From Marsupella aquatica (taxonomy: Eukaryota; Plantae; Marchantiophyta): DNA of 64,000 bases. How positions within the stretch are numbered: position 1 is the first letter of the stretch; each line of letters starts with the position of its first letter. Of the stretch, positions 6,998-57,352 are shown piece by piece. The notes under the pieces were generated by a model that worked only from the letters and a program-made list of their open reading frames with translations, was not told where the DNA came from and searched no databases. The translations under genes were made by a program, and so were the position numbers. The DNA lies in contig OZ316891.1 of NCBI GenBank assembly GCA_973895155.1, forward strand, positions 23,435,899 through 23,499,898, written 5' to 3'.

Positions 6998-7635
6998 CCT
7001 ACTCGGCGAGGGTGTCTGACATGCGATCGCGCTATCTGGCGAGCCTCTTTGTGGTGGATTAGGGACTTCCTTGGTTGCTGAGTGTCATTTACTTTTCATC
7101 CCGAGTCATTCTTGGCGGGGGTCTCCAAGATTCTAAGATGGATTCTCATAGACTTTTACCTAGAATCCTACTCGGCGAGGGTGTCTGACATGCGGTCGCG
7201 CTATCTGGCGAGCCTCGTTGTGGTGGATTAGGGACTTCCTTGGTCGTTGAGTGTCATTTACTTTTCATCCCAAGTCATTCTCGGCGGGGGTCTCCAAGAT
7301 TCTGAGATGGATTCTCATAGACTTTTATCTAGAATCCTACTCGGCGAGGGTCTCTGACATGCGGTCGCGCTATCTGGCGAGCCTCTCTGTGGTGGATTAG
7401 GGACTTCCTTGGTCGCTGAGTGTCATTTACTTTTCATCCCAAGTCATTCTTGGCGGGGGTCTCCGAGATTCTAAGATGGATTCTCATAGACTTTTATCTA
7501 GAATCCTACTCGGTGAGGGTCTCTGACATGCGGTCGCGCTATCTGGCGAGCCTCTCTGTGGTGGATTAGGGACTTCCTCGGTCGCTGAGTGTCATTTACT
7601 TTTACCTAGAATCCTACTCGGCGAGGGTCTTTGAC
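6998..7635. repeat. 169-bp tandem repeat (~3.7 copies), each unit with several CTCGGCGAG/CCGAGAT palindrome variants
   Basis: CCTACTCGG(C/T)GAGGG at 6998, 7167, 7336, 7505 and 7613; the unit starting at 7505 is internally deleted. Confidence 0.92.
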
Positions 7636-8200
7636 ATTTAGTTTCCTATGACATGGGTAACGTGTCACTTAATGGAACCCAGGTCGTAGATTAGGCCTTA
7701 TACGGGCATTAGGACCGTAGCCATAGCATAGAATAGCACGTGTAGCCGTCTATTGCCATTATGAATAGATTAGGAGTAGGTTAAAATGACCGAATAATTA
7801 CGAGTTCAGGAAGAGGATTATTACGCACGACCGAGGTACGGTGGTGGCAGCGGAGTAAAAATCAGTTAGAAGAATCACGCTTGGACCAAGGCGCCGACTT
7901 TAGCTTGTTATCAATGACCAAAACGGCCTGGCCTTCTCACGCTCGGGCTCATCCTGGCACCTCCATAAGAGAGGAGCCGATGGTGCTGTGGGCCATTTGC
8001 TCATGTCTACCCTTTTTTGAATTCGCAGACGTTGCCACCCACTCGCCCTGCTGATCGAATCGAGTTGACCTTTACAAGGAGATTATTGAGGGAGAAGAGC
8101 GGAATGTGGTGAGATTTAGTCAGGATGAGCGAGGCCTCCACGAGAAAGAGGACCAGCCGGGTGGGAACGCGGACTCAACAAACCGGACTACGAGGTTAGT

Positions 8201-10516
8201 ATGACCCTCATAGCCTTGGGATTTTGGACCTTGTTTTGCGAGGTAGGTGCTAAGTTCTCCAAAACTTACTGGTACTCTTGTCCCGAGAAAGCCGCTTACG
8301 AACAAAGATACGCAAAGCTGGTGACCAAGGTAGCACTGGTTAATTGCGAAAGGACAGCCATCACCAGGGATTCTAGCTACAACGAGTTGCGAGACTACAT
8401 CACCGAACTATATCTTAGCGAGGAAGGGCTTAGATCGGTAGCTGAGGCGATTCTTGAGGTTCCAGCGAAGTTCTTTAAGCTGAAGGGCAGCCAGCGGCTT
8501 ACTCAAGCGGAGTTCGACAAGATACCAGGGTACCTAGACCAGCAGATCGCAGCCGAAAAGCGCCAAGAAGACATCAGCAAACAATGGGAAGCGGCGCGTA
8601 ATCTTACGTTCCTCGGGTAAAGCTCCAACGCCTTCAACTGGGATATGGCTACCCCGATACCACCAGTGCCTCAGCCGATGACCACCCGCGTACCGCCGAA
8701 CCGGTCCCAAGTCCATCCAGTAATCAACACAAAGTGTTCTTCGGGTTCCGAGCAAGCTAGTCTGCAACTCCAACAGCATCCTCGTAAGCGGCCAAGGACT
8801 ACGACGGCCCCCGAATCAATAACGCGGACCAACGCCGCGCCTGCACCTGCCCCGGTAAACCCCCCGACCAACCAGACCCGACGGCCCCCGGATAACCCGA
8901 AGTCCAACTTATTATAGGTAATCCGCGTCCCCGAAGTAGTCTGGATTGCAATCAAGAAACTCAAACATGCGAACTATCTAAAGGAGCATCAGTTGGAGCA
9001 GTTTGCTCACTTGCTTTGGAGGCCGTGCGCCGCCGGGCCAAAGGAGATTTGTGAGTTCATCTCCAATTTCGACACTGACGCGTCGACCACCAAGGTTTTG
9101 GGGCAGGCCTTATCACTCACGGAGCATTGGTTAACGCAAATCTTCTGCCTACCAACCGGGCCAGTGCCGGTGGAAATCCAAATTCGGGATAAGGAGTATA
9201 CGCCGTGGCACTTCAAACCCGAGGGTAAGACGGACAACGGATACAAGCAGGGGGCGTGCACCAACTTAACCTGTATGGAGCGGCTTAACTTCATATGGAC
9301 TACCCTACACATGATTGAGCCACGATCCGAGATTTCCCTCTGCACGATCGTGCTGGTGGAATAGTACAAACGACAAAACTGGGCCCAATTCTTCTATCAA
9401 AGATTCTCGGGGGAGCTGAAGCGGGCTCAGGGTGGTATGGCTATTGGGGGGAAGACTTACTTAGGAAGTCATATCGCCATTATCCTCGCCTGGTACAAGG
9501 CACGGCGGGAGGCCAGAGGAAAGAATATGGCCACCTCAGCCCTGGCTAAAGTCACCCCCGCCCCGGAGGAGGCAACCCCGAGCATGCGGACTACCGTCCC
9601 TCGGGCAAACCCCAAGCCGGAAGCCCCGACTAATACTCCGCCACCTCCTCCTGTGGAAATTCTGCCGCCCCCTTCCGTTGAGCCTCCACTACCCGCAGTA
9701 CAACCACCCCCAATCCCTCCACCACCTGAAGATATCTTCCCCTCCCCAGCGCTGACTACAGAGGAGATCATTGCTCCACCCGAGGACCCACCGATACCCA
9801 AGAGGATGGAGGACTACCAAGTAGCCCCGGGGACCATGGCCTATGACCTGGTCCAGAAGTTTAGCCAGACTATGTCTGGGGAGCTGGCAACATACATCGG
9901 ACAACAAGTCTCGGCGTACTTTCAACCAACCTTCTTCATGTTAGAGCACCAACCATGGATCGTAAGCCGCTTGGAAGAAGAACTCATGGCGAAGGGGAAT
10001 GAGATCGGGCGCCTCCAGATGCTGGTAGAGCACCTCGAGGAGGAGGCAACAACCCACCGCAAGGAGTTAGTCCACACCGTCGAACAAAGGGACGGACTAA
10101 CCCATGAGTTAAGCGGAGCGCAGGCCGAACTCAAGAAGCTGGACGACACCGTGCTTCAATTACGCTCAGAATCTTTGGCTCGGGTTACCAGCCTGACCGA
10201 CCTCAACAAACAATTCCTGCAGGCAGCACAGCAGGTGGCTAGTCTCTCCGTCGAACGAGATAAATTGCTAGCGCAGGACCAGATCCATCGCAACTCCATT
10301 GACCAGCTCAATCTGGAGGTAGCACGGCTCCAGACCGAAGCCGATGAAGCTGCAAATGAGGCGGAGGAGGCGGTACGGGACAACAAGGCCTTGCAGGACC
10401 GTATTACCCTGCTCGTCCTCCAGCAGGGAAAACCTGGGCCCACCTCTGATCAAGGCGGCTCAAGGTCTCGTCCCGACAAGGGGACCAGCCCTGGTCCAAC
10501 CACTGCACACACGTAA
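8201..10516 (+). pseudogene. LTR-embedded accessory gene (plant-transposon-type domain + Pro-rich linker + coiled coil); one frame with 3 premature stops
   Basis: ORFs 8201, 8645, 8993 and 9437 are all in the same frame. Homologous to 41195-43819 (HMIEPRSEIS vs HMMEPRGEIS; IGGKTYLGSHIAIILAWY vs IGGKAYFASHIEIILEWY). Confidence 0.85.
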
Positions 10517-11231
10517 GGGGTGGTTAGCAAAGGGTGGAAGTAGGCGCCGCGCGAGGCAGTTAAGTCAGCGGCATCTTTTGGTTAGGCGTAACGACAGCAT
10601 GACTGTCATTAGGTGCCGATTAGCGGCAGTAAGAAGAATTAGGGCCAGATCAGTTAGGATAAGCCAACATAGGATGGAGTCCATCAACGGACTAGAATTT
10701 GTCAATAGGCTTGGCCGCTGCCATCCTGGTCGGCACCTTATCGTCGACGGTCAACCAGTCAGTGCGGCGCGGCCAGTAGTCAATAGGTAGTATCCCGGAA
10801 GGCAGTATCCTCCGGCTCTCCTCCGCGATTGTAGTATTTAGGCTTCCCCTTCCGCTATGGTCAGGGGAGAAGGCTTAGTTATCTCAGCAGAAGAAAGGTG
10901 AGGCACGGGGAGTCCCGGCCTGAGCAGGGTCAGAGCGCACCAAGGAGTGAGAGCCAGAGTCAAGCTTGCTGGGCAAGTGCGAGGCAGGGCCTCGTAGAGA
11001 CTGGGCATCAACTGCCGTTGGGCCTGCTGACCCCCTTTGAAGTCGAGTCAACCATGTAAACTGATGCTTCGCTGAGTAAATGTAGTCTTTTCCCCCTAAT
11101 GTTTCCGCAAGTAACTGGTGTTGTGTGTATGCTTTGTCTGGGTAAAGGCGCCATTTTAAGGGACGTACCGGGTGTGAACTAATGGTAGGGATTGCCACTC
11201 ATTGTATGTCACAAGGTCCTATCGTGTCGAT

Positions 11232-11311
11232 GGCTTGAAAGGCCCCAAGCCGGGAGTTAGTCCGAGTCACTAACTAAGGGAATATTCCAGCGGTGGAAAA
11301 CAAATATACCT
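11232..11311 (+). other. Conserved multi-hairpin RNA motif in LTR unit A
   Basis: Stems GGCTT/AAGCC, AGTTAGT/ACTAACT and TTCCA-GCGG-TGGAA; they covary with the copies at 17538 and 40454. Confidence 0.65.
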
Positions 11312-11489
11312 ATGACTAGTATGAATTACGCAGGTGTTATACCAGTAAGTCTATCAACTTAGCCCGACTTAGGACTAATAGAGGTCACTACACACCTCCT
11401 TGCCCGAACCCTCACCCTTACTGGTGGTCGAGGTCGCACCATGACACTAAACTGGATTTAAGGCCCAGGTTAGTGGCGCAACATTTCCA

Positions 11490-12310
11490 CCCTAAATTAT
11501 TCTCGGTGGGGGTCTCAGAGATGGACTCGGGTCATTTGGGCAACAGTATTTGTACTCGGCAAGCCTCTCTGAGATGGTAGATTTGTACGGACACGCGATC
11601 CATACAAAATTACATTGTAAAAACATTGAAAAGTACTGTACGGTCAGTTTTTGCATGCACTTTTGGGTTCATCCTAGTATTTTGGCGAGGGTCTGACATC
11701 GAATGTGGGATAGAACCAATTTGGGTCCTTCATTTGAAACGGAACACCCTTAATTTCATCTCGGAGAGGGTCTCTGAGAGACATAGTGTATGTTGTAGCT
11801 AACCCTTTGAAATTGTTAACAGGGTCCACAAGTGGTGTCATCTGGCCAAAGTACGCCCACGACTCCATCTCAGAGAGGGTCTCCGAGAGGCTGGGTCTCA
11901 TTTGGCAACCTTTCTGACCCAATATGCGATCTGGGAGAACTGCTCTCTGGCCACTTGGGGCACACGGCTCCATCTCAGAGAGGGTCTCCGAGCGATTGGG
12001 TTGCAATCTCACTTCCCTTTCCACCCAAGACGCGATTGACAATTTTTGTTGTCTGGCCGTTCGGGCCACACCACTCCATCTCAGAGAGGGTCTCTGACAT
12101 CGGATGTTGGATAGAACCATTTTGGGTCCTTCCTTTGAAACGGAATACCCTTAATTTCATCTCGGAGAGGGTCTCTGAGAGACACAGTGTATGTTGTAGC
12201 TAACCCTTTGAAACTGTTAACAGGGTCCACAAGTGGTGTCATCTGGTCCACAAGTGGTGTCATCTGGCCCACGACTCCATCTCAGAGAGGGTCTCCGAGA
12301 GGCTGGCGAC
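11490..12310. repeat. Continuation of the MULE palindrome-rich region, with a ~200-bp block duplicated ~400 bp apart
   Basis: Repeated ATCTC(A/G)GAGAGGGTCTC(C/T)GAG; 11690-11890 resembles 12090-12300. Confidence 0.85.
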
Positions 12311-12388
12311 CTTTTTGACCCAAGAAGCGTACTTTTCTACCGTGAAGTTTGCTAGAGTGTTGGACTTTTTTCTACTTCTCATATTTTA

Positions 12389-12416
12389 CCCTAAACCCTA
12401 AACCCTAAACCCTAAA
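12389..12416. repeat. Four CCCTAAA plant telomere-type repeats (telo-box-like) upstream of the ParB gene
   Basis: CCCTAAACCCTAAACCCTAAACCCTAAA. Confidence 0.85.
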
Positions 12417-15400
12417 CATAATTGGCTGCCTTTATTAAGTCTCCTCCAACAAACCCTCCTTGATCTTGTTGACTTGTGCTCTTCCCCCTTCTCTTAACCC
12501 CAATTTCCTCTTTTAGTTAAGCCACCCAAATGATAATGCATGTGGGCAACCATTTCCTCTTTGAGCTGACGCACTGAGATGTTGACGCGTCTTAGTAGGC
12601 CTTGGAATGAAATGACAGCAAGGGTCTCCTACATTCGGACTCATTTGAGTTGTAGGCCGAAGTCCCTAATTGTACCCTAAATGTACCCTAAACTCTCTCG
12701 TACTAGTGGTGGTCAGTACTCACGTTAGCATTGTGTACTTTCTTGTTTGGGCCGTTAACATGTACGTATCGAAATATAGTTAGGATCTCCCGTATCTATT
12801 GCGTACTTTAGTGTTGTGCAGTACGTGCGGTACGTTATTCCTTGAAGTGGATGTCGTTCCTTCCTCGTCACTCTTCCACGGTGTGACACCTTAGGTTTGG
12901 CGCTCGTCTTTATCACTAATCCCCGGACCTTCTCACTCTGCCTCACTCTTTTGCGTCCCTTACTCGTTCGCGCTCTAATCCGCGCTCTTCCTCAATCTTC
13001 GCATATTGGTCTTGTGCAATCTCTCACTTCTCCGTGCTCACATCCGCATTGTTCCTGCTCTTCTTCAGTCGTCCCACTCACGGTAAACTCTCCTGTGCAA
13101 CCCTGTTATTGTGTCTACTGGATTGCGTTGGTGTTTTGAGGCAGTGAGCGTTTAGGCAACATTTTTTTGTGAGCATTTGCGATAGTGATTTGCCATGAAC
13201 GTTGGTGATTCTCTCAGGTTTTTCTCTTGGCTCCCCCTTTTTCTTGATATGTAAAATCCATTTGTAGATGAATCAAATGTGTGATAGGCTAGACCCCGCA
13301 TATCCTTGAAAACTGGCTCTCTCGGCGGGGCTCGCTGAGATCTTGTCAGGTTTATAGGTCGAGCTATTGCCGAGTAATAACTCTTTCATTTCTCATGTAA
13401 TCTAAGGTCAAAATACCAAAGAGGAAAGACTCGACTGGAGCTGGACCTGCCGACAGCCAAACTTCTCAGCGGAGTAAGAAACCACGATCCAAGTCTCCTT
13501 CGCCAGTCACGTCTCGACTGACGCGCTCACAGGGTGGTCCACTTATGGAGTCAGTCGACTCTAGGAGGAAGTTTGAGCCAAAGCAAATATCATTTGAGCC
13601 TATTGGAGTGGCAGAATTGGCTGATATTGCTGAGAAGGGAGCCTGGGAGTCTATCGTCTCCAAGTATGAGACAAAGTTTAGTAAGGATCCGCCCCGGATC
13701 CCCTTGTGCCGGCTCATGCCAATGGAGGCAGTGAGGAATCTTCAGGATGAGTCGGTTGCAAAATTAAAAAAAGGGTTCAAAGAGAGCGGCTATGTTGTGA
13801 AGCTCAGCGAGTTCCACATTACTGAGTTCAATGAAATTGGAGAAACGCAGACAGTGACAGACTTCAAGCCATTTTGGGACCCTCTATGGACTCAGCTCAA
13901 TGAACAGTTTGAGCAAGAGTGCGATGCATCAAAGGAGTTCAAAGTCCTTAAGGACAAGATGTTTTGGGTTTTTTATGGAAACCATAGATACACAGCCTGG
14001 TCCGCAGTTGCTTCTGAGTATCCGGATCAATTGCAATACCATTCGTGCGTCAGATTCTCTCTTTTGAACGCTGGGAAGGACGGATTCAAGAAGGTTGAGC
14101 AAGCAATGCACGCTCTCAACTCGTAAGTACTCTCATTCGCGTCTTTTTGCAAAATGTGATTACCCGTTTGTGTAAACCTTGTGTGCCATCTTGGAGAGCC
14201 TCTCTGAAATTGCCGCTATGAGTACTGTTTGTCATTTTCAGGATAAGTGCGACTGTCGTAAAGACATCCTGGTTTAATGACGCTGATCGGGTTGCAAAGC
14301 TATTGAACACTCCATTGGAGGAGTATAGTTTGCTCATGTCAAAGGAGACAATGGAGGCTTTCATGAAGGCCCAAAATTGAGGACATGGGAAGACTTGGTA
14401 CTCAAAGAATATGACAAAAGAAGCCGTTGTGTACATCATGTCTTGGTCAAACATTGAAGCGGGACAAATCAATATCTCCAAGGAGATGGCACAAGACGCA
14501 GCTCGTGGGCACCCGTGGAGTGTGAAGAGAACTGAGGAGGAGACGGAGGCAATGATTATTGTTGCATGCAAGGCCTGGGACAACAAGTTCCCCAAGCTTG
14601 CGGCCTGCGTGAATCCGGCCAATGGAGACCAGTTCATGCCGGTATGTCGGCAGCTGTATCACAAGTTGTCAAAGGACGCCAAGCAGGGTGTGATGAATGT
14701 ACAGGTTGGCTTGGACAGGGTTCGCTTGTTTGCTGGGGCTTGGGTAACTGCAGAGTGCAGAGTAAAGCTATTGAAAGCTCATTTTGGAACGGAGGAGGAG
14801 AAGAGTATGTATCACCATCCACGTAGCAATGGTGATGCTGCAATTAGATCCTGGTTAGCGGTCTGGTCAATGTGGTGTTACATTGACCACGTTGGTTGTG
14901 TGATTTTGACCGATTTTGCTGCAAAGGCCTACCAAAGACAGATGTACCGTGAGTTTTCCGGGACAGAGGAGGAATTTGCAGAGCTATATAGAAGGCTTTA
15001 TTGAGCTTATGTGCAAGAGAAATCACTGAAACTAGGCGGGGAAATTTGGATTGACGGAAAGGCCACGGTCTTGTTAAAAGAATTGTGGAAAAAGCGAACA
15101 AAGAGGTGCGTGACAAGATTTCTAATCAATCAGGAGAACATGAATGCATCCATATTGAAAGAGCTGCCATGGGCACTCACATCTTGGATGGAGCCGAAAG
15201 GGAGCCTTAGCATGTATCCATGTGATGGCCAAATTCCTAATGGCAGAGTAGTCTGCGATTGGGAACGTCAAAACTGCCCATGGTATATGGAATACCGTGA
15301 CTGGAATACTTTTATCGATGACGCTGAGAAGGAGTGTGCAATGAAGCTGAAGGACCAACAGGAGCCTACAAATTACTACGATATATCCAAGCTGCGACAA

Positions 15401-15629
15401 TTGACGGACTCTATGCCCCAGGCAATAGCTTTGGAGGCCATAATCCCAATGGACCCAGCCTATGATGGGAAAAAGGCCCGAAAGGAAGGAGGCGAGAAGA
15501 AGGTCGACAAGGAACAATCCGCCGAGGCCAGTCAGTCAAATTCTATAAGCACTCCAACAAAGACCCCATCAGGTAACTCAATTCCTTTCAAATCAGGTGG
15601 TGGCTTGCATTGGAAAAAACCTTGGCTGG

Positions 15630-15805
15630 GTTGGCGAGGCTTGCCGAGATTAAGTGTCTGGTCCAGTCCAGATGTTGGCGAGGCTCTCCGAGATTAAGTG
15701 TCTGGTCCAGTCCAGATGTCAACGAGGCTCGCCGAGATGAAGTATTAGTTGAGTAATAAGTTGCTTGCATATAATGAACCCGATCTTGGCGAGGCTCGCC
15801 GAGAT
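15630..15805. repeat. Intronic ~43-bp repeats with the palindrome, e.g. ATCTTGGCGAGGCTCGCCGAGAT (15783-15805)
   Basis: Four palindrome copies lie between donor 15572 and acceptor 15847. Confidence 0.85.
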
Positions 15806-17537
15806 GCAGTTGCCATCATGAAGCTCATCAATTTGCATCCTATGCAGGTCATGCAGAGATCCAAACGGAACCTGATTCTATCAAGAGCAAGGGTGTAGAG
15901 CTGGCTACAAAGGCAGCAGTTGAGGACAGTCCAGGGGTTTTGCAGGGTCCAGGGCACAAGGATAAACAACCAATAGTTGAGTTGGGTCCAGACGAGGCTC
16001 CACTGCAAGAATTTGACTTGCCTCCGCATGAGGCTCCTGAAGTACAAGATGAATTGGCTGACGAGCAGCAAGGTGAGGATGATGTGGGTGAGCAAGAGGA
16101 AGAGGAGCGAGAGGAAGAGGACAAAGGACAATCCGGAGATGAAGGGCGCTTGTCTGATATCTCTCATGTGCCTTACCGGCCACCATTACTGTCACGGCAA
16201 AAGGAAAAGGCCTTAAAAAAAAAGCAAACTAGGCGACTCAGAGCTCCCAAAGGGAGCCCAAGCAAAGCACGTGACGAGGAATTTCCTCCTCTTCCTTCCC
16301 CCACTGAGTCGCCTCCCCCGCCCGGCACTGGAGAGGTTCCGCCCACAACCATCCAACCTGACCCCACATTGGAAAATGAGGAGGATGAAGAGGCCCTTGG
16401 AGAACAGGATAACACAAAGCTGGAAGGAGTAAGGCGTCCTTATGCCAATACCATGTCTTCCCAGAGCAAACATATGTATTTTAGGTGGTCTCCAAATCTA
16501 TTTCCAACTTTTTTTGATGCGGCTAAAGAAGGTACCGAACCCCCTGTAGTTAGTAAATTGATCTCATGGTGCAGAAAGCTATTGCGGGAAGGTTTGTGTC
16601 AAAATGCCTGGAGAAAAGGGGGGAAGCGAGTGAAGACTGGTGCAGATTTAATTCTGATACATATGGGAACAGACACGCGTATGGTCGAGGGTAAGTCCAC
16701 CCCGTTGTGGAATTTGTTCCGGGAGGACGACTTGAACCGGGTTCAGGAGTTTGCTCGAGATGTCCTTGATTCCGAAGGACTGTTTGCCATCGTGCACAGT
16801 GGTTCGCTTCGGCACTCAACTTGCATTTATGATGCATTAGTTTACGAGAATACCAACTGGGGGTTGAAAGAAAGCTTCTTTATCTGGAACGACACACCCA
16901 CCTACGATGGTAGGACTGGGAAGCGAGTAAGTCCCATCAATTACCTACTTCTTCATTTATTTTTTATTCCAATGACTTACTATCCTAAACTAAGGAAGTC
17001 TGACCTCTGAATATGTTTGGCCGATCCAGAGCGAATATCTCAAGCTAGACCTGTGGGGGTTTCAATCTGCTGTGGAGATATGCCCAAAGGACGATGTGGC
17101 ACCAATTAGTGCAGAGCTTGATATGAAGAGTAGGAATGGGCTAACGAACTATACATCCAAGAAGAATCAGGTTAACGATCCTTTTGCGGGCACATTGTCG
17201 CCAGCAACGCTCCAATGTATCATCGAATATATGTCACGCGATTGACATGGGTCTTAACACCAAAAATGTCACTATGGGTGCCAAAACCATCTCCTTGTAC
17301 CTGAGGATCACGAAGGGATGTTGTGAAGGTCGATAAACACCAATTTATGCCCTTAACACCAGACTATCATAGCAAGACTCTATCACACATCACCCAAGCT
17401 CAATCCCAAGGAACCAAGGTTGGGGATCAGGTCTGCGCTCATGATAGTTCTGGTGAGAAGGGGTCTTCATATTGGGCCCGTACACACAGGGCCTAGCGCT
17501 ATGGTGCGCATAGGTCTATACGTATGCTTACTGTCAT

Positions 17538-17619
17538 AGGTATGTTTCTATTCCGCCGCCGGAATGTACCCATAAACCAGTGACTCCGGACTGATTCCCG
17601 GCTTAGGGACTTCTAAGCC
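17538..17619 (-). other. Conserved multi-hairpin RNA motif in LTR unit B
   Basis: Minus strand: GGCTT/AAGCC, AATCAGT/ACTGGTT and TTCCG-GCGG-CGGAA. Confidence 0.65.
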
Positions 17620-18964
17620 ATTGCCCCACCACTCTACCATTCCACTCTCAGCAATCAGAGCTATGACAGTCCTCACCCAGCCCGCTTCAATGCACCCTGT
17701 ACACCTCTCAGTGGCGCTGCTAGTCCCATCATACACTCAGATTGCCTCACACACACACACATCCATGAGAGAAATGAGGCCTGAGAGGAAAACTCAGTTA
17801 AATTCAAAGATGTGCACAACAGTTCACTGAGAACACTTGATCCGAACACTAGGCCCGAAGGCTGTCTCCTCCAGATTACGACGTGCTTGCCCTGCAAGCC
17901 CCATGCTTGCCATGCAAGCTCAATCCTGAACCTGAGCCCGGCTCACTCCAGATTGCGATGGCAGATTGGACTCGAACCAATCTCGTACTTGCCTTGCAAA
18001 CTCAATCCTGAACTCAACCTCCTTCACTGCACTTCATTCTTGGGGGCACATACAGATCTCACACCTCCAATTCAGAACGTCAAGTTACGCATACATAGTT
18101 GACTCAACTTCAAAGCTGGTACCAGGCTAACGGCGATCTACCCCAGGCTGCAATGAGGCTCGGCCTCACGCTTGCCCTGCAAGCTCCGCTCTGGCCATAG
18201 ATCCCTTAGTGCTCTCCACCAGACAAAGGGCGGGACTCCCCATGGATCACGTAGCCTTGCCAGACTGAACTGTAAATGCTCCTCTTGTTGCCCCTCAATC
18301 AATGTCTCAACCTCCCTAATGTGCTCACCACAAATCAAATTGACATCCTCCCCACAATTTACAATCACCAATACATCACCTATCACCAAGGCTCTGTATC
18401 GGGGAAAAGAACCCAGTTGTGCTACCCACTAGAAAGAGCCACAATCCAGCTCGCAAACCTAGCAACTCGTTGCTGTGAAGCTTGGCTGATTACTCCCTGA
18501 GTAATAGCACAACCAAGCTCTCCCCAACACGCAGCGTCCAAGTCCAGCCTTGCTTGCACAGAGCTCCTCCCTGCTGCTCAGTCTAAGTGAGATCACACAA
18601 CTGAAGTCCCCCCTGCCTCTACCGGGGGGCTGCTCTATATACTCTCTCATTGAGCCCAAATGGGTGGATGCTACGCTGCTGGAGCCCCATCCCAGCCCTA
18701 ACAGAGCCACCACTATCTCTAAATACTGAACCCTAACTCGCAGCTTTATTTCTATCTCAAATTGGCTATGTACTTCGGATTTGGCCCTCCTCCATGGTTT
18801 TTGCGAGCTTGCGCCTCCTCTCTTGATTTCTCTATTCAACCATTTTCTGCGTGGATAGCAGCGTTGGAAGCGGCTTGAGCTCTTCTTTCCAACGAGGTTA
18901 ATTATAGCCGATTTGGTCAAATACACAGAGAGTTATGCCCCCGCAACCGAGAGGGGGTACTCAC

Positions 18965-19345
18965 TCCTGCGCTAACCCGAGTTACATAGCTAACCCGAGT
19001 TCGGCTAACCTAGCTATCCTATCTAACCCGAGTAGAGCTAACCCGTGGTCTCGGGTTAGGCCGCTACCCACTATCCGCTAACCGCTAACCTAAGCTGAGC
19101 CCAAACCCGAGCTTACCTATGCTAACCTGAGCCCGAGTTTAGGCTAACCCGAGTTAAGTCTAACCCAGGATCAATCTAATCCGAACCCGGGTTAAGCCTA
19201 AGCTGAAGCTGTGCTTACTTGAGCTAAGCTGAAGCCGTGCTTACCTAAGCTAAGCTGAAGCCGTGCTTACCTAAGCTAAGTTGAAGCCGTGCTTACCTGA
19301 GCTAAGCTGAAGTCGTGCTTACCTAAGCTAAGCCGTGGTCAAGCT
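18965..19345. repeat. Short CTAACCCGAG-type repeats and a 26-bp tandem array (x~5) near the 5' end of unit B
   Basis: Unit GCTAAGCTGAAGCCGTGCTTACCTAA at 19223, 19249, etc. Confidence 0.85.
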
Positions 19346-20164
19346 TGGGTTAACCCGAAACTGAAGCCGAATCCGCTAATTTCGGCCACAAGTTAACCCG
19401 TCACACTAATCAGGCCGTATCTTTCTTAATACACCTCCGTTTCTCAAGTGTTTTATATCGATTTTACTCGCCTTGACCAGATCTTTCCAATGCTCTTTAC
19501 AGATCCAGATTTGGTGACATATTAAAAGAGATATGGTCGTCAACCACCCGCGACATAGCTTTTATTTCCCTACTCTTAACGCCATGATTGCCCTTATTCT
19601 TGCCATCTTGCTAATTGTTATGCAATATCAATAGCTACTCCTTGCATACAGCAACCTACTTAATCAAATTACAAAATAAGGACCATGTCATTGGCGTCAC
19701 AATATACAACACACCCTGGGGCAACTATCCTCACTTTCAACGCACAGTTTGGGGCAATATTCAAGGCGGGTGAAAATTGCGGGCGGATGGTGTTGGGACT
19801 GAATCCTATCCTCACTTCGGAACTTGTGCGCAAGACCAACTGGCACAACTGGTTGGAGTGATCTCCCCGGAGGAGGAAGAGGTGGTCTGTTCAAAAGCCA
19901 ATCCAGAAAAGCGCAAGAAGAAAAAGCCGGCAGTACTCCCAACGACATGTAAGTTTTCTGGCGTTTGACGTTGTTCATTTCATATTTGCTTGCTCGTCGC
20001 AATGGTTGACAATAGAGGGATACAAGTCAGCGGCCTCGCCGATATGTATGCATGTCGGCTGACCTCGCTGACATTCATAGTGTCTGGCCTCCTCTACAAG
20101 CGAGGGCAAGTCCTAACTTGAGATGCATGTTGGCGGACCTTGCCAAGATTCATTCCTCTACATG

Positions 20165-43819: not shown

Positions 43820-43920
43820 TCAGAGGAGATAGTAGTGGCGACCTAGAGAGAACGAGAGAGCTGGGGTCGAAGCTGGCGCGCGGACTGATGGACTGGTGCA
43901 CTACAAAGGGTTGGCTCCCC

Positions 43921-43927
43921 TTTTATA
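43921..43927 (-). promoter_or_regulatory. TATA box of LTR unit C
   Basis: Minus strand GTATAAAAGGGGAGCC; similar CCATAAGAGAGGAGCC at ~7963 in unit A. Confidence 0.55.
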
Positions 43928-46526
43928 CTTTGAGGGCTTGTCGATCCCCGACGTCTCCTCGACGTCCATAGGTTGAACCGCTCACGCTTGTGGTGTACCG
44001 GCCACTCCGCCGGTCTGAGTCAACGTGCGTCAGTGGCCGCTTCCTTAAGTTTGTTATACGGACCCGAGGGAGGGGCCCCTCCACGCTCGTAACCCGGGTG
44101 TGCGAATAGCGACCCGCCGCCAGCCCGAACCTGAAGTCCCCCTTATTGCCTAATGATGTCCTACCCCTAATGATTACCTAAATACTGTCGTTATGCTAAT
44201 AATAGCGGCCTAAGACCCACCTAACGCGCGTGCCGAGCGCAGTTAGACTGAATCACTCATTAACCGCCGTACCGGCGGCGTCACATGCCCAGTGACCAAA
44301 GGGCGTCTTGCACTTCTTCACTCCCCAAACCTATGATTGCCACAGGAAGTATATGTTGTAGTAAACGATGATAGTCATGTGTCTTGAGATACATTGGCCA
44401 TTTATGACTGTCCTCCATCCCAAAAGCCTTACGTAGATTGGCACCATAGCCTGTAGGAAACCGCATCTGCCCTATGCGTTGTCGAAACTCTCTTCTTTCA
44501 CCAACACTCAAAACCCATGGAGCTGAAGGATGATGTTCCATCCCTGTGGATTCATCAACTGTTATCCATACATCTGGATGTCGTTCTAGATCCTGGCATG
44601 CCTCCCTAAAATTAATGTTCTTTTCCCCATAAAAGTGCTTGATCAAAGCCTTCCCAACATTTTCCTCTATATGCATGGGGTCTAACAAGTGATGAATCTT
44701 CAACTCAGGCCAATAGGGCAAAGTGGCCAATATACCCCACCTTGTCAATCCACTACCATCAAATCCCATGGCATCTTCAGGGTCTGCCACCCTATCAGCT
44801 ATGGACTTCCAATACGAAAATGTTGTGCGGTCAAGTATCTCACGCTCATCACCATTGATCATGTCAAAGTCTGAAAACAAAAGGGGGTCAGACCTCATGT
44901 GATGCCCAAGTGGAAGAAACTTGGTATGACCAAGGTAGATTATCTTGTGCAGCCATTTTGAGTACTTGGCCATATCGTGAAGGCTTGGACCACAAGTGGA
45001 GCATGCCTTGTACCCTTGAGTTTGGAACCCAGAAACAAACCCAAACCCTGCTCACAAAATAACATTCTCAATTAGAGTCAAAGGAATTGAAAAGTTCATG
45101 TACATAGAATTAAAGAGGGACTTCCTTCCAAACAAACTTGATCTCCAATACATGAAAAAAATACAAATCCATACCACTCACCTGGATAGTCATGCATGGT
45201 CCACATAATGATTCCCTTCAATTGGAAGACACGTGGTAACCCTCCTGTAGTTGTCCGACCATCATATGCCCATACACCCCCCCATAATTTATGGAGTTCC
45301 CCAACCAAGAGCGCCAAGTAGGTGTCCATGTTTTTTACCTTAGATGGACCTGGGATAATCAATGATAGCAATAAGAATCCCTTTTTCATGGACAACCATG
45401 GGGGAAGGTTGTAATTCATAACAACCACCGGCCAAACCGAAGTAGGGCGCCCTTTCCCTCCAAGGGAGTGTGGGCTTACCCCATCTAATGCCAACCCCAA
45501 CCTCACATGACGAGGGTCACGTGCAAATTCTGGCCATTGTGACTCCACATGCTTGTGAGCAGGGGAATCAACTGGCAACCGCATGACACCGGCCTCTGAT
45601 CGATGTGTCTTATGCCATACCATCAATTCTGCCAAGTCAGAAAATCGGTACATGTGCAACAATCGAGGAATAATAGGAAACCAACGAACAGCTTTTCTAG
45701 GCACCTTTGAGGTCAACATGTTGGTTTCATATCGAGGCTCTTGACAAATTGGACACTCAGTTGCGCTGGCATTGGTCTCATGATAGAGAATGCAGTCATT
45801 CACACAAGCATGAATGATATGGTATTCCATGCCAATGGATGATAGAACCCTCTTTGCCTCCTTCCAAGTTCCTGGCAACACATTTTCACTAGGTAACAAG
45901 AGATCATGGCAAATCGCAAACAAATCCGATAGTAGCGCATTGCTTGCCTTGTGTTTTGCCTGAAGATTCATCAATGCCAAGATGGCAGATAGTCTATTCA
46001 AATGAGCACCCCCATAAATAGGTGTTCTAGCATGTGCCTCAGCTTCTTCCCATTGTTTTTGTCCTTCAGGTGTACGTTGAGGCCTTGGATCATGTGCAAC
46101 ATTTGGTGGAGGGTCTCCTTCATTGGGTGGGACACCTCCTTCACCACCAATGTCTACACCAAACCAATCTGTCATGAAGTCATCCATGGCTGACTCTTGG
46201 TCTTGCATGACCTCATAATCTGTCCGAGGTGCCCCTTCATCTGGACTGTCATTATCATTGTCACTTGATGAGGAATCTGCTGATGATGTTTCCCCGTCTT
46301 GTGGCAAGCCCATTTCTTGATATGTAGCTCTCAACGTCCTTGGCAACATATCTTGACTAGGCCGCACATTCTATAGAAAATACAATAAAGTATTCACAAT
46401 GAAATTAACGCCAAATATAGTAGTGCTCGAAACATATTATTAACAATATAAAAAGAACATGTCATTACAAAACATACGTTCACATACGATGAACGTATAA
46501 TACATGTCCCTAAAGTAATCCTAATC

Positions 46527-47335
46527 TCATTCATAATGTGTAAACAACTCCTCTCCAACCAGAATGGTCCTATTAGCTACAACTAGACAATGGTCATGAT
46601 GATATCTCTGCCCATAAGGGGTTGGAGGGGGACCATCAACAAAAACCCATTCACAGTTTTTCCTACGCTTAGGCCGGGTCCCCACAGTACTGTTGATGAA
46701 ACCGGCAATATTCCCACTACGGATGGGATCACCATCAATTATACGCTGGTCACAATACTTTCTGGTGCAACCATCAAAAGTATCCATGTCCAATGCATAA
46801 GTCTTCCACTCATGGTGTTGAACAAGGATCATGTTCCAATGTCTCCTCTTGTAAATGGGTCCACCATACGGGAACAACGTTGGTCCATCTGAAGAGCGCC
46901 CTTTTCCACCCATATCATCCACAATAATGTCCTGACAAGAGAAAATCCCATACCCATGCCTCTCCCCTAGGGTCGAACTCTTGACAACCCAACGTCTTCC
47001 CCAAACTTCTATCTCCTCACCATAGGTTATATCACATGGCAAACCAAGGCACTCCGGATTCCAATCCTTTATGATAGGAACACACTTCCCTGTGAAGGTA
47101 CAAGGGCCCCATCTACCATCAACCCTACAAGTGTACTGATCCACTTCCCCTCTAGGCTGTCTTTTTGACTTTTTTTCCCTCTTGTAACAATACCATCACC
47201 CTTAATTGTCCCAACACTACCTTGCCCTGCTGCCACTAAACGAAAAGCTTGTGAAAGTGCCGAGCCTATAGCATCTAGAACTCCTTGTGAGGGAACATAG
47301 GGTGTTGGTGTAGTGGGTGTAGGCCTACTGGATAC
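46527..47335 (-). pseudogene. SET-domain (lysine methyltransferase-like) exon inside the CACTA transposase gene; apparent 1-nt frameshift in an A7 run near 47173
   Basis: VKSSTLG..GYGIF..QDI, PYGG, IDG.P..GNIAGFINS, and LVVANRTILVGEELFTHY. Phase-0 acceptor TTCCTATAG at 47336. Confidence 0.8.
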
Positions 47336-48114
47336 CTATAGGAAGAAATGGAACCAAGTGAGTGTGATGAACCTCCCAAATTTTATTTTATGCTACCTAG
47401 CAAGATTTACAAAATAAAATGGAAATCACAGTAAGTTTACAACTCACCATACGGGATGAAGAAGCTCCCGGTGTAAGACCTCGATGTTGGCCATATCGAG
47501 CAATGTGCTCCGCACATACATATGACTTTTGGACAACCATCCCCACACATTTTTTACAACCACAAAGTTGGCGTGGTGGACCACTAGGTCGACGTACGGT
47601 TGGTTCAGGTTGAGGAGGAGGATGACTTTCTTCATCGGAAGAGGAATCTGATGTGGTGGAAGTTGTAGAGGATGAAGACATCTGACAAGTATAGCAATTG
47701 GAAGGCGATTAGTAAAAACTTCACCAAAACCATCATTGATAATCCCTACCTAAACATATTAAAAAGAATTGACAGAAAAATACCTTTATGAGACCCGGGC
47801 TTAGCAATGCCTTGACGGATCTTGTGGCTCAAATTTCATGAACCAAATCTGGAAGGAGGGGAAAATCTGCCAATATACAATGAATTAAGCCATGCCTTAT
47901 GGTGAACCAGAAAAAAAGGATGATAGATTGTAACCCCTCCATATTTACAGCAATGACTAGAAATGCATGAGAAAATGTTATACCTTTCAGATGCCCGGGC
48001 TCTCGCAAGGCATTATCATGCATTAGCCAAAACTTTAAAAAACATGGGGAAGTGCCCTACAACGCCAAAGAGTTTTCCTCTCCATGTTAATGAGATAGAC
48101 AAAGAAATATAAGT

Positions 48115-48900
48115 AACCCAAACCCTACCCTAAACCCAAACCATGAAATGAAACCCTTCATTAAAACCTAACCCAAATCCCTCAATCACCCTAAACCCTT
48201 ACCCTTATCCTAACCAATACCCAAATCCCTCATTAAAAATTCAAACCTTTACCCTAAACCCAAACCATGAAATGAAACCCTTCATTAAAACCTAACCCAA
48301 ATCCCTCAAGCACCCTAAACCCTTACCCTTATCCTAACCAATACCCAAATCCCTCATTAAAATTTCAAACCTTTACCCTAAACCCAACCCAAATCCCCCA
48401 ATTACATATAAAACTCTTACCCTATCTACACCTTACTTTACCTATATAGGCCAACCCCCACCCCTATAGTTATTCTAAACTTCACCCTAACCCCTAAATT
48501 GAGGCCCTTTTTTAAAACTTAAGCAAAAATTGTACCCCCTCAATTAGAACCAAATCCAACCCTATATCATGTTACACCCCAACCCAAACACTTACATTAG
48601 AAACCCAACCCCTTTAAAAAAACCACAATTAAACCCCCCAACTAAAAACCAAACCCAATCCCTTTAAAAAACAACCACAATTCAACCCCTCAACTAAAAC
48701 CAAACCCAACCCCTGTAATTCCTCACAACCTAATGCAAACCTCTACCTTAAACCCTAAGCCAAACCCATTAATTTAAACCCAACCCTTTTATTCCAACCT
48801 AACCCAAGTTTTAACCCCCTTAATTAAACCAAATACTCCTAGATTAAAACCAAATATAAACCTAACCTTTAATTAAACCCAAACCTTTGTTAACTTATAT
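48115..48900. repeat. C/A-rich low-complexity region with AAACCC(TA) motifs and a ~125-bp direct repeat
   Basis: 48128-48250 resembles 48251-48385; lies between the divergent CACTA genes. Confidence 0.8.
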
Positions 48901-49384
48901 TCTAGTTATCCTTACAACCCAAACATCCATTGACACCCCTTCCATGTTAACTTATGGGCACTTAACATACCTTAAATGTCGTTTGACAAACCTTAATAGC
49001 CGTTTGACACCCCAAAGTGTTTTCCAACCCTAAACCGATAAGACCTGCCTCGCAAATTATTTCACAAGTTAGAGAATATTTTTGCGAACCTACGACCTTC
49101 GCACTTGCTTCGCAAAAACAGAGGCCGAGAACGATTTTTTGGGTCTTCTGCGGGTTGCGATGGCTTTGCGAAGGGAATAGATTCGGAAGTGCCTCGCAAG
49201 TTGCGAGACTATTTGCGAGGGCACGGGCTTCGCAGTTTCCCATGTGTATGTCATCGCAAACCCGTTTTTGAACGGCGTAAACATCGGTGGGAGCTCGCAT
49301 TCGGGCTCATTTCAGTTTTTGAGCGAGACGAGAAGGGCCGGGCCGCGCGCAACAGTACGAGGGAGACTGTGAGAGAGGGGAGCT

Positions 49385-51431
49385 ATGGCTACCGGTGAGG
49401 GGAGTGGAGGGCAAGGTGGTAGTGGTAGTGGTAGTGGCAATGGGGGAAATCCAGAGAAAGAGAAGAATGCCTGGGCAGACTTAGTGGCCCAACATCTCAG
49501 TGCTGCACAATTGGGAGAAGTGAATCTCAATTCTCCAGCAGGGCTTGCCTCTTTGAGTGCCATTCTTGGACAGGTTTTGCAAACTGGGATTGTAGCAGGA
49601 CAAGCTACTAGAGAGGGGGAGGAGAGGGCCGCAGCTGAAGAGAAGGCTAGAGAGAAAAAAAGGAAGAGAGAGGAAAGAACTAAGTCGGGAGTTGCCTCTC
49701 CTCAAGCCCTAGAGAAGCAGAAGAGAAGAGAGGAGAGAGATTCAATTCGAAAACAGAGGGAGGAGCAACGTCAGAAAGAGGAAGCAAGAAAAAAACTTCC
49801 ATTCATTGCCTTGGAGACGAGTGGGACTCCAACTGAGCTAGCATATGCAGGGGCTAAGAGCACAATCAAGCAAATTATCACAAGCAATTTCTCACGAGGC
49901 ATCCAGTGGGGGAAGATTGAGAAGGCAGAGCGAAAGAGGGTCATCAACCAAATCAAGGATGCATTTCGCAATGGGCCTGACATAGATGAGCAATGGTTGG
50001 CAGATAAGATTTCAAATTCTATGTCTCAAATGCGATACCATGACAGGATGAAGATTAGAGCCCACCTGAAAGACTTGAGATCATACAGGAACTTGCGCAG
50101 ACCCCTCCACTTCACCGAGGACATCTGGAATTCGTTTTACAAGATTGAGGTGCAAATTAAGGCAGCTCACGAGTTGGAAGAGTGGAAGGGCAATCTAGAT
50201 CGAGCCTTGAAAGCAAAGGAGGCCGGGAAGCTCCCCCCTGACCACGACCTGAAGCCACTTGAGCAGAAGGTAGCTGAGATGCAGAAGGTGGCCAACCAGG
50301 AGGGAAAGCCACCCAAGCGTTTCACAGATGCAGCCAAACGAGTGAAATCCACCCCCAATCCAGTCCACAAGTTGGGTCAAGGCGGGCTCCCCGGCCTCAA
50401 GTCACACTTTGTGAGTGCCTCTTGCTCCTCCCTAACCTCTCTATTCCTTTCAGAGTTGTGCAATGCAAGTGAATGACATCCCCGAAGGTTCTTGCTGTTG
50501 TGCATGCTTGCTTGGTTACTAGTTTAGGGCAACTCTGACACTTAGAATTTCTGGCAAATTTTTAAAAACTCTCGGGAACACAGTTTGCGAAGGTGTTGTG
50601 ATGCGTATTTGTTCGCAAACCCCTCGCAAAGTCTATCATAGACTTTTTCCATTTCAATTTTCCGATGCCTTTGCGAACAAATGCGCATCGCAAACTCCAT
50701 TGCAACGCCTTCGCAAAAAAAGGTGGTTCGCAAGTTGCTATGCTTATAGGTTCACAAATTTGAATTTTAAAATTTTTTTGGGTCATGTTTAGTAGTTGAG
50801 GATTTAGGCGTCACTTGTGGCTATAGGGTATGCTTAAGGGCAAATTTAACCAATTTTAATTGGTTTTATGCATGGCAGTATCGGAGGTACAAAAGGAAGA
50901 TATCAAAAAAGCATATTGAGGTGGCGATAGAGCATGGACGAAAGTACCTCTTTGCGATGGTAGATGCCGAGTTGGCTACTGTAAGTGTCTAAGTGTGAAC
51001 CATATGATTAGCATGCGAACATTGTGAGTGACCCTTTATGTCTTGCGGAAACTAATGATATGTAATGGATGCAGGATTCGGATGAGCCTGAGGGGTCGGG
51101 TGCTGATGTGACCAGTAGTGATGACGATGAGGGGGCTACTCCTGGTACTAGTGGTGCTCGGGGGGGGAGTAGTCGTGAGGTAGGTTCTTCCCACCGTGGT
51201 AGTGGTGGTAGTCATGTGTCATCAGCACACGTTGATGACCAGGGGGAGGAGGAGGACCCTGAGGATGAGGAGGAGGAACAGGAGGGGCAGGAGGAGCCAG
51301 AGGAGCAGCAGGAGCAGGAGCAGGAGCGCCGACGGCCATCACACACCCGTCACCAACAGGATCCCCGGAAGGATAAGGGCAAGAAGCCAGCCAAGAATCC
51401 AACCAAGAGGAGCCGCAAGAGCCCATTCTAG
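49385..51431 (+). CDS. CACTA second gene (TnpA/Ptta-like); 3 exons 49385-50410, 50879-50980, 51075-51431
   Basis: Phase-0 GT-AG introns. HKLGQGG motif reminiscent of Transposase_24. Acidic tail; frame open after splicing. Confidence 0.7.
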
Positions 51432-53730: not shown

Positions 53731-53739
53731 GTCTGACAA

Positions 53740-54700: not shown

Positions 54701-56789
54701 GTTGACTCGGTCAAGGGCAGGTAATCTGTCAGTGGACGGACCAACGGTAGTGGCTGCGGAGGAAACGTTGGGGGCGTCCATTGAGAACCAGCCACCGGTG
54801 TCGTGACGGTGTAAAGGCGCCGTCCCTTTTAGGGAGGGCAGACGTGGAGGTAGGAGGCGTGAGTGGGTAGGGCGGGCGCTGATCTCCAAGTTTAGATTTA
54901 GGATCAAGACCAGGAGACGGCCCTGACACTTAGATTAGTGGGATTTTGGATCCGCGGTTGAGGGTGACACTTGTGCTCCTGCCTCGCTGTACATAGGTAG
55001 ATTACAGTTAGGTAGATTACAGTGGATAGATTAGGCTTACGCTGCAAGGAATCAGGCGGATCCACAACCAGGATAAGTACCTGGGCTGCAGGGAGTTCAG
55101 GGCCTCTTCTTTAGCAAGTTTTTAGTTGCACCAGCAGGGCTGGGATCAAGTAGTAAGAGAAGCTCTCGGTTAGTTATACAATGACCTTGTGTATATCCAT
55201 GTTTTCTCATACTTAAGAACTGAATAGAGTTGGCCTCACGGCTTAGTTCGCAGAGCTTGTGTATGAGATGTACTGTTTGTATTGCAAGTGCAGGGTATAA
55301 CTCAGTCAGAAGGAGTCATTTTGCTATTTGTGTGTCGCATTAACTTGTGTGAAGAGTGCCCACATCAACGAAAGAAGGGAAGTAAGCAAGGGAGTGAGAG
55401 TTGGATGTGTCGAGTGTGGTAAAATGTATCTTATTAACTCAGATTCGTTCCCGTAGGGAATAGAGGAAATTGATTTACGATAGTATTAATGTTTTTGAGA
55501 CCTCAAAGGATTTCTATCTTATCATACTTGCTATAAAACATATAATATATTTATGTTTAATCGTCTTGGTATGGAATCTCTCTGATTATCGTTCTCTCTC
55601 CATAGAAGTTTGATTTTCATTTCATTCCTAAATTCCATATACTCCTTAGAGATTGGTTTTACATTAGGAATGTCATTACAATTCTCTAAACTCTAGATTT
55701 CAGAATTTACTCAGATTTTCCATGCAAAACTCAAGAAACATTTTCTTAAAAGATGTTCACTCATTCCAAAGTTTACGAGAAGATAACGAGGAATTCATGA
55801 ACAATAGTGGAATTTTAGTGGTGGTGCATTTTCCAATTCATCGATTCTCCCTCCTACGCCCAATTTGGCACAAGGAAAAGACCCACATTGGTCACAAATC
55901 GCTTCCAAAGAAAATGACAAGGAATTTCTTCCTGGGAGTTCAATTGTAATACTCCCTCACAGATCAAAGAGATCTGAAAAGGTTACCTAACTACCTAAAA
56001 ACTAACTATTGATTGAAAATCTGAAGAGGTGAGTAGTTCTAACTACTTTCCTAAGCTAAGATTCCTAATGATGGCTAAACTAGTTTAACTAAGCTTAATT
56101 CTATCTAATGAGCTCGGTTTAGGAAAAAGGGAGAGGGAAAACGGTTTAAGAGAAGTTGAATCAAAATCCAACTTAAAAACGCCTGAACAATTCTTCCGAT
56201 GTAAAGCAATTGTCGATTAAAAAGGATCCTTCAATGTGAAAGCAGTTTTAGAGCTTCAACTCCTTCATCTTCTTTAAATAACTTCATTTGTCGCTTAAAA
56301 GGTTTCAAAAGTTTTGGAAAATGTAGATTGAATACTCCTTTAGAACACTTCCTCAGAAAAGGCTTTCCACAGAATCCCCTCCTCAAATGTGAAGCGACCT
56401 CGCGAACAATAAATCTTAAAAAAGTAGCAAGTAAAATTGGTAAAGAGGATATCATTTCTTACTGAAAGAAACAAGGAGTGAGTCCATGGAATTTTGGGGA
56501 CTGCAGGTTCGGTTCTGAGCTTGGTGTGGGGTGTAAAACAAATGAACTGGGAGGTGTAGTTCAGCAAATTGGATCAAGTTGAGTAAATTCGGAGTGAAAA
56601 ATACAAAGGAAAGAAACATAGGGAATTTGTGGTAAAGAGAATGAAGTGCAAATGAACCGTCACCAATGTACAAAGTAGTGATATGCTGGGAGATATTCGC
56701 TTTAGAAAAGCTCAAAATGAGATCTTTCTCATCACCATCCGAGAAGATCATTACATTCAAGGAAAATGCTCGTACTTCCACTAACTGTG

Positions 56790-57352
56790 GAGATAAGTAA
56801 TCTCATCAGTTATCAGTCACTTTCATCAGTGTACCTGATATCAGCTGCCACCTCATCTTAGAGAGGTCACCAAGTTGCGATGTGAAAAAGAAAAAAATGA
56901 AGAAAAAAAAAAATCTTGAAATTTTCTTCAAAATTTGAAGGAAAACTTCTTTTTTTCCAAAAAAAATTCGCCATGAGGCATCCGTACCGTACGGACACCT
57001 ATCTCGGCGAGCCCAGCCGAGATGGGAAAAAAATTCCAAAATTTTTTTTTTCAAATTTTTTATTGGGGAAAATTTTTGGTTTTTTTTTTACCACATTTTT
57101 TTTCGATCCGTACGCCCATCTCGGTGAGGCCAGCTGAGATGGGGAAAAAATTTTCAAATTTTTTTTTTCGGGAAATTTTTATGTTTTTTTTTTTTGATTT
57201 TTTTTCGGTCGTACGCCCATCTTGGCGAGGTCAGCCGAGATTGAATCAACCTTGGCTGCCCAGCTGAGATGAACGGAAGTTCGAAAGCCCCATCTCAACT
57301 CCTCAACTGAGATTCTAAAATTTTTGAGATAACTGATGATGTTGTATACCCC
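56790..57352. mobile_element. Mutator-like MITE (563 bp) related to the large MULE and filled with the ATCTCGGC-N7-GCCGAGAT palindrome
   Basis: 9-bp TSD CTAACTGTG / CTAACTGCG. Left end CATCAGTTATCAGTCACTTTCATCAGT matches the reverse complement of 22885-22925. Palindromes at 57001, 57118 and 57219. Confidence 0.85.

Follow-up and report, generated by a model that had tools for sequence, protein, structure and literature searches.

A family-private palindrome in a liverwort Mutator-like transposon and its possible recognition by the element's own ParB-like protein

A 64,000-nt stretch of the genome of the liverwort Marsupella aquatica (contig OZ316891.1, positions 23,435,899 to 23,499,898 of the forward strand), called the window here, contains a 23-bp palindrome amplified in and around the genes of a decayed Mutator-like DNA transposon. 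The palindrome is read as a private motif of this one transposon family, likely the site of the family's own ParB-like fusion protein, which would keep the non-coding DNA of the element open against silencing; a probability of roughly 60% is given to this reading. In the window copy the system is dead, in that both genes are broken and most changes to the sites are CG/CCG-type decay. A first-pass annotation of the same DNA had described the palindrome as re-amplified in several unrelated repeats. These repeats are all parts of one transposon and of its miniature inverted-repeat transposable element (MITE), and the annotation overlooked that a single transposon family has the sites to itself and also encodes a candidate binder.

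The core ATCTCGGC-N7-GCCGAGAT occurs in perfect form once in the window, at 57001, and 39 times with up to three mismatches, as against 0.12 expected. A 23-column profile built from nine clusters, used with a cut-off of at least 12 bits, finds 63 matches in the window and 1.0 in shuffled sequence; 60 of the 63 are the profile's own training set, and the three others lie at 6245, 12612 and 53352. The N7 had been taken for a free spacer, but the profile keeps GAG or GGG at its centre. Therefore, the motif is a 23-bp quasi-palindrome with an orientation, not two half-sites around a free N7. When spacers of 0 to 15 are scored with a half-site profile, spacer 7 is represented by 58 sites (0.7 expected) and spacer 6 by six (0.3 expected), and none besides these rises above four sites. 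The proposal that spacer length is largely kept is thus borne out by the dominance of spacer 7 but not by the six spacer-6 sites, all of which are no more than ~230 bp from an end, three at the right end of the element and three in the MITE. A peak at spacer 2 (18 matches at up to four mismatches) dropped to 2 with the half-site profile and was rejected.

With nested insertions set aside, 62 of the 63 profile matches are located in the Mutator-like element (~3742-22936) or its MITE. Introns hold 34 of them and the intergenic region 17; six are in the transposase linker, three in the MITE, one before the first coding exon, one in the subterminal region and one elsewhere. No match is found in 4.6 kb of accessory-gene exons or in 10.4 kb of nested insertions, and one is found in the 40.5 kb outside the element and MITE, DNA that is itself mostly transposons. 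The latter match, at 53352 within a retroelement, was taken as chance. The claim that coding exons lack copies is correct for the accessory gene but not for the transposase, as six of the 63 matches (5507-6267) are in its open frame. The clusters first named, in the 169-bp and 40-bp arrays, the 44-bp units, 11500-12301, 13319, 22670 and the MITE, are all present. The element and its sites are laid out as follows.

3742 to 22936, unstranded: decayed Mutator-like DNA transposon, right end at ~22934-22936, terminal sequence in common with the MITE
3742 to 6529, minus strand: transposase gene, 818 codons read
5507 to 6267, minus strand: six palindrome copies in the transposase linker, five in a 132-bp in-frame repeat and one outside it
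6997 to 7637, plus strand: 169-bp tandem units with 8 sites, first half of the intergenic block
7647 to 11483, unstranded: nested retroelement with 5-bp duplication TTTCC, splitting the intergenic block; no sites
11500 to 12301, plus strand: second half of the intergenic block, 8 sites in irregular units
13319 to 13341, plus strand: lone site directly upstream of the first accessory-gene coding exon
13545 to 22503, plus strand: accessory gene, spliced, 1,492 codons, five GT-AG introns
14123 to 14241, plus strand: intron with one site (14188)
15573 to 15847, plus strand: intron with 44-bp units, 4 sites
17232 to 19701, unstranded: nested insertion of long terminal repeat (LTR) type with 5-bp duplication ATATA, in the methyltransferase-like exon; no sites
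19949 to 21385, plus strand: intron with a 40-41-bp array, 29 sites, orientation opposite to the upstream clusters
22670 to 22872, plus strand: subterminal sites, spacer 7 at 22670 and spacer 6 at 22712, 22799 and 22851
22884 to 22936, unstranded: terminal region, five CTGAT/ATCAG units, a motif distinct from the palindrome
56789 to 57351, unstranded: MITE of the same family, 563 bp, 9-bp target duplication identical at 7 of 9 positions

The 169-bp array and the cluster at 11.5-12.3 kb are one former block, divided by the nested retroelement. This block lies between the transposase gene and the accessory gene, which are arranged head-to-head.

The accessory gene is interrupted by two premature TGA codons, one frameshift and the nested LTR-type insertion. 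Its protein consists, in order, of a ParB-like part (with GNHR at residue 145), a helical region, a part like the beta-class N4/N6-methyltransferases (~900-1100) and a Ulp1/C48 protease. The named homologs are proteins of the liverwort Riccia sorocarpa, at ~25-40% identity, and a search limited to longer proteins found no homologs. In a Pfam scan of the open reading frames (ORFs) of the element, Peptidase_C48 alone matched; the Ulp1 domain (PF02902) scores above the cut-off with an E of 1.4e-14 and carries the motifs KHWVLV and DDYNCG, in line with the His, Asp and Cys residues of this protease class. Given that the Ulp1 domain was not seen in 177 homologous proteins or 80 related loci, the fusion of ParB-like, methyltransferase-like and Ulp1 parts may be lineage-specific.

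The ParB-like assignment is suggested by several lines that are each weak alone but agree. The top Atlas matches of this end include a ParB_N cluster (11% of its members), [DEN]GNHR is present 108 times among 156 proteins, and DGQHR matches weakly in four of 68. An AlphaFold model was made for the liverwort homolog P0170, not for the window copy, and its residues ~90-265 are predicted to resemble KorB (Z 7.7, rmsd 2.7, 95 aligned), and also PadC (Z 6.7) and the serine kinase 5x0b (Z 6.0). Residues 790-1070 of the same model resemble beta-class amino-methyltransferases with Z up to 13.8. PF01555 is found below threshold in four of 21 homologs, and the methyltransferase-like exon of the window matches a profile of homologs at E 6e-18. 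Active beta-class amino-methyltransferases have a (D/N/S)PP(Y/F/W) catalytic motif and an FxGxG motif for S-adenosylmethionine. The catalytic motif is non-canonical here, D[MLI]P[ST]G in homologs and HMGT in the window copy, and therefore the domain is possibly a binder rather than an enzyme; some homologs have a FAGGWG-like form of the second motif, which is degenerate in the window copy. One ParB-like homolog, P0064, ends in a C-terminal NIF phosphatase domain (E 2.4e-12), and so the effector end varies across the ParB-like protein family.

A metagenome scan with the transposase alignment was used to collect distant relatives at 80 loci. Remnants of a ParB-like gene occur in ten of these, seven of them distinct, and in six of the seven the remnant is head-to-head with the transposase, as in the window. 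The transposases of these ParB-bearing relatives are 26-34% identical to the query and form a branch separate from that of the window by a quick tree method. The exact palindrome of the window is absent from the 80 loci, save for one two-mismatch match common to L017-L019. Clustered palindromes of TCGGC|GCCGA type, however, are present in all seven distinct ParB-bearing loci: a 22-bp dyad, CAACTTT-N8-AAAGTTG, is found in L047, L035, L038, L073 and L019, and L058 and L067 have variants that are flanked differently. The eight central columns of the dyad vary almost solely as C/T or G/A, and would reconstruct to TCGGC directly abutting GCCGA. In the 39 loci scanned, 40 of 50 matches have spacer 0, and a second array in L067, made of 46-bp units, has the same putative half-site with spacer 4 in 18 of 19 matches. 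Spacers 0 and 4 thus occur within one locus (L067, 1846-2348 and 3200-4460), which holds one element or two nested ones.

The clusters of the relatives also sit close to the ParB-like gene. In six of seven loci, 160-747 bp separate the ParB exon match from the nearest cluster, which lies upstream of it, and the clusters are 2.7-7.6 kb from the first transposase match, the true gene start being somewhat nearer. A second type of array is found inside the accessory gene in L047, L035 and L038, and in L035 and L038 these in-gene arrays precede weak methyltransferase-like remnants. The loci without ParB have single sites at most, some near contig edges. AT-rich noise dominated the first de novo dyad scan, and the clusters called in L031 and at 5353-6685 of L019 are noise of this kind; the L035 cluster only ties with shuffles in the dyad scan and rests on the later dyad and half-site scans.

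Across the nine clusters of the window the flanks have a mean identity of 0.25 and a maximum of 0.45, which is background, so the clusters do not come from one tandem duplication. Within tandem arrays, change per base was compared between motif columns and flanks with C>T and G>A changes set aside. In the 40-bp array of the window, 1.0% of motif positions and 9.1% of flank positions are changed (25 of ~28 units, irregular and last units left out), as compared to 2.6% and 14.8% in the L047 array (seven of eight units) and 1.5% and 13.2% in the L038 array (six of nine units). Motif columns therefore change six to nine times less than flanks in all three arrays. The first-pass suggestion of selection on a site for a dimeric type of protein is supported by the constrained spacer, the conservation of motif over flanks and the differing flanks of the clusters, which a single tandem duplication does not explain.

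These comparisons bear directly on the proposal that the palindrome is neutral, its copies being a by-product either of local duplication promoted by a hairpin-prone sequence or of gene conversion within the element. Tandem arrays do hold most copies (one intron alone has 29 of the 63), and C>T or G>A within the CGG core accounts for 74 of the 119 half-site changes in the window, CG/CCG-type decay that was left unrepaired and that would be expected for a methylated, silenced copy. Single copies, however, stand in unrelated flanks (13319, 14188 and 22670), the flanks between clusters share no more than background identity, motif columns are the more conserved part within arrays, and the spacer is fixed within a family, at 0 or at 4 in the relatives. 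The neutral proposal is very improbable and already largely refuted.

Three further observations are difficult to reconcile with recruitment, by the sites, of a transcription factor co-opted from the host. The spacing differs between families (0, 4 and 6/7), it differs even within one contig (L067), and the motif is nearly absent from the 40.5 kb of other window DNA, although that DNA is mostly transposons too. The recurrence of a TCGGC-like half-site across divergent families is what a conserved host factor could impose, but such recruitment has only a slim chance of being the explanation.

A dimeric protein made by the accessory gene accords with four features: the half-site is conserved, the spacing is specific to each family, the sites concentrate around that one gene, and they are better conserved than their flanks. 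Several points weigh against recognition by the accessory protein. Its binding to the palindrome is deduced from sequence, and the ancestral TCGGC half-site of the relatives is a reconstruction from C/T and G/A columns. The Z scores for the ParB fold are below 8, which is inconclusive alone according to the fold-search tool, the ParB-like fragment of the window itself has no Pfam or NCBIfam match, and for the helical region there was no convincing fold match, no Atlas match reached 0.9, and no helix-turn-helix (HTH) or other DNA-recognition module was found. Array units are related rather than independent, so Fisher p-values for motif versus flank overstate the support. The loci without ParB lack arrays too but look truncated, so the association is not independent, and co-occurrence of ParB and arrays across loci was dropped as evidence for the binder. 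Finally, the MITE has no gene yet retains six sites, the subterminal sites number six, the transposase gene contains six, and the intergenic block of the window reaches to 471 bp from the transposase ATG.

The last group of observations fits the transposase as a binder too. The palindromes could be transposase-binding sites, as subterminal enhancers of transposition, for self-activation driven by the transposase or for both, with the ParB-like gene as passenger or partner. All six spacer-6 sites lie close to an end, subterminal repeats strengthen binding by the Muta1 transposase according to the portion of that report available (PMC5499845), and the available portion of another describes an AtMu1 transposase that binds motifs in terminal inverted repeats (TIRs) and hypomethylates cognate copies (bioRxiv 2026.08.24.746577). 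In the window, though, the majority of sites occupy introns or the region upstream of the accessory gene, kilobases away from the known end; the clusters of the relatives hug the ParB-like gene, kilobases from the first transposase match; and the termini carry a separate CTGAT repeat, itself a candidate site for the transposase. Binding by the transposase is the main rival explanation but rather unlikely. In a possible mixed model, the transposase would use spacer 6 and the accessory protein spacer 7.

If the palindrome is the site of the accessory protein, a dimer would recognize two TCGG(C/A) half-sites at a spacing specific to the family. Tandem duplication of units bearing the site would raise site density around the accessory-gene promoter and in the introns, and the methyltransferase-like domain and SUMO-type protease would counter DNA methylation or heterochromatin. 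The anti-silencing role is proposed by analogy with VANC of plant VANDAL transposons and with the ParB-type protein VirB. Spreading of ParB style, dependent on cytidine triphosphate (CTP), would be a further step. In its boldest form, the proposal is that Mutator-like elements (MULEs) of land plants run a ParB/parS-like machine, in which a CTP-gated clamp loads at palindromes, and slides along the element with a methyltransferase-like domain and SUMO protease attached, families being orthogonal through TCGGC at spacers 0, 4 and 7 and a 6-bp variant marking ends. The features of a ParB-parS clamp that appear in the accessory protein are the predicted fold and a GxxR-type motif, with no HTH match found, and this extended form is doubtful.

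The left part of the element was removed by an LTR element ending at 3741, and its left end lies beyond the window. The transposase frame was read from 6529 to 3742 with a nested MITE and one frameshift bridged by N, and the gene is damaged by one stop, that frameshift and the MITE. It consists of an N-terminal domain, a repeat linker, a Cys/His-rich region and a D..D..DxxH core, and shares 66% identity with two database proteins. In the transposase alignment A2, the conserved columns D, D and [CD]xFH are presumably a MULE-type DDE transposase motif, and the conserved Cys/His-rich region we take to resemble a GCM-like region. No Pfam match and no match to a transposase by PDB sequence or fold was obtained, PDB sequence searches with A1, A2 and P0168 gave chance matches only, and the predicted model is of low confidence (pLDDT 47). 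Assignment to Mutator therefore rests on the alignment motifs and on the 9-bp target duplication of the MITE, which is in the range of 8-11 bp made by Mutator-like elements (PMC6446971, in the part available). The MITE ends and the right end of the element have a short imperfect TIR in common, much shorter than the typical long TIRs of MULEs.

An empty site for the MITE is seen as joints that skip 572 bp in four of four runs. Its spacer-7 sites are internal, at 57001, 57118 and 57219, and its spacer-6 sites are near the ends, at 56855, 57249 and 57292. Other copies lack the insertion at 17232-19701, as seen from a joint, 17225-19701, in two of four runs.

The 132-bp coding repeats of the linker show no clear selection at the protein level, with nine synonymous and 24 non-synonymous codon differences in three of the five copies. 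The linker of a relative, P0002, holds the similar peptides LGEVLRD and LGDPLRD, which suggests the same DNA motif. The close relative P0001 has a different, SPVQVSSH-like peptide repeat at linker residues ~105-200, possibly encoding a different family motif. The N-terminus of the transposase (6296-6529, minus strand; residues 1-83 of P0002) is predicted to have a ubiquitin-like beta-grasp fold, with weak Foldseek matches (E 0.02-0.2), and a Ulp1 protease is encoded by the same element. A 147-bp tandem repeat at 22936-23364 begins exactly at the right end of the element.

Other elements are present in the window. A second MITE family, at 5067-5390 and ~35607-35890, has GGGTAT...ATACCC ends, a 9-bp duplication CAATTTTGT at the first site and its own repeated dyad TTTACTGGTACCAG(G/T)AAA; one copy is inside the transposase gene. 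A Copia-type element at 24682-29973 has identical 187-bp terminal repeats and is therefore a recent insertion, although its frames contain stops. A CACTA-type element at ~39100-51000 encodes Transposase_21 and DUF4218/4216, has a dyad at 50596-50693 and carries a SET-domain ORF at 46527-47195 (minus strand), which to us recalls SET-carrying accessory genes of transposons.

VANDAL elements are multi-gene transposons of Mutator type that carry a Ulp1-like gene, VANB. The available part of one report describes VANC motifs that accumulate through tandem repeats in introns and intergenic DNA (PMC5735166), and the window resembles VANDAL in that a family-specific motif is amplified as tandem repeats in intronic, intergenic and terminal non-coding DNA of the cognate family. 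VANC motifs are short and in the same orientation and are not described as palindromes in the text at hand, where "palindrom" occurs 0 times (PMC5735166). VANC binding and demethylation are proven in Arabidopsis, as far as the accessible portions of the reports go (PMC5735166, PMC10398659), whereas their counterpart in the window is deduced. A VANC-type domain was not detected in the ORFs of the element by a Pfam scan, the VANC sequence not being compared directly, and the accessory protein is instead ParB- and methyltransferase-like by homology and predicted fold.

Bacterial ParB-parS systems and KorB combine the ParB/Srx fold with repeated palindromic sites. The window is similar to these systems and to VirB in its predicted ParB/Srx fold with a DGNHR signature and its repeated palindromic sites, but it has no ParA partner, no HTH identified, a setting in eukaryotic chromatin and extra enzyme-like domains. 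Iyer et al. 2011 is reportedly cited for similar proteins of green algae. ParB-HTH methyltransferase fusions are known from chlorophytes and chytrids, unlike the fusion in the window, in the portion of that survey available (PMC4738411), and VirB of Shigella is described in the part at hand as a CTP-requiring anti-silencer of ParB type (PMC10653881).

Two algal transposons are the closest in architecture. The giant Plavaka (EnSpm/CACTA) transposons of Bostrychia carry the accessory genes PAG2 and PAG3, with inverted-repeat tandem arrays beside the ParB-like PAG3, and self-binding was proposed in the accessible text (bioRxiv 10.1101/2025.02.11.637652). Like the window, they combine a giant DNA transposon, a ParB-like accessory protein, a PF01555 methylase in the cassette and adjacent inverted-repeat arrays. 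They differ in being from a red alga with an EnSpm transposase, with ParB fused to a 2-oxoglutarate oxygenase and the methylase on a separate gene with SET, whereas the window has a Mutator-like element with a single ParB-methyltransferase-like-Ulp1 gene; the accessible text gives no motif sequence or conservation test, although the supplements may list repeat sequences. Sola1-1_Ec32 of Ectocarpus, a 21.5-kb DNA transposon, has a gene for a ParB-like protein with an N4C/N6A-methyltransferase on the strand opposite the transposase, and self-modification was proposed in the part of the report available (PMC12477816). It shares with the window the combination of ParB-like and amino-methyltransferase parts in one protein and a gene opposite the transposase, but comes from a brown alga and the Sola1 superfamily, and the accessible sections describe no Ulp1 or binding motif.

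ParB-like genes with inverted-repeat arrays (Bostrychia) and a ParB-methyltransferase opposite the transposase (Ectocarpus) are therefore already in print as hypotheses. No paper on such a system in land plants was found in a literature search that left most subscription journals outside. New within the literature searched are the Mutator-like carrier in a land plant, the Ulp1 fusion, the shared half-site at spacers 0, 4 and 7, and the end-specific 6-bp class. In short, two papers of 2025 propose that algal ParB-like accessory proteins bind and modify their own element, and the window carries that architecture over to a Mutator-like clade of land plants, with a fused Ulp1 protease added. The locus supplies a defined motif that shows conservation and occurs in natural variants of spacer length, so that specificity can be tested directly as a matrix of proteins by motifs. 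If the reading given here is true, it would represent a second, independent anti-silencing system beside VANDAL and VANC, and a possible eukaryotic use of the bacterial ParB clamp.

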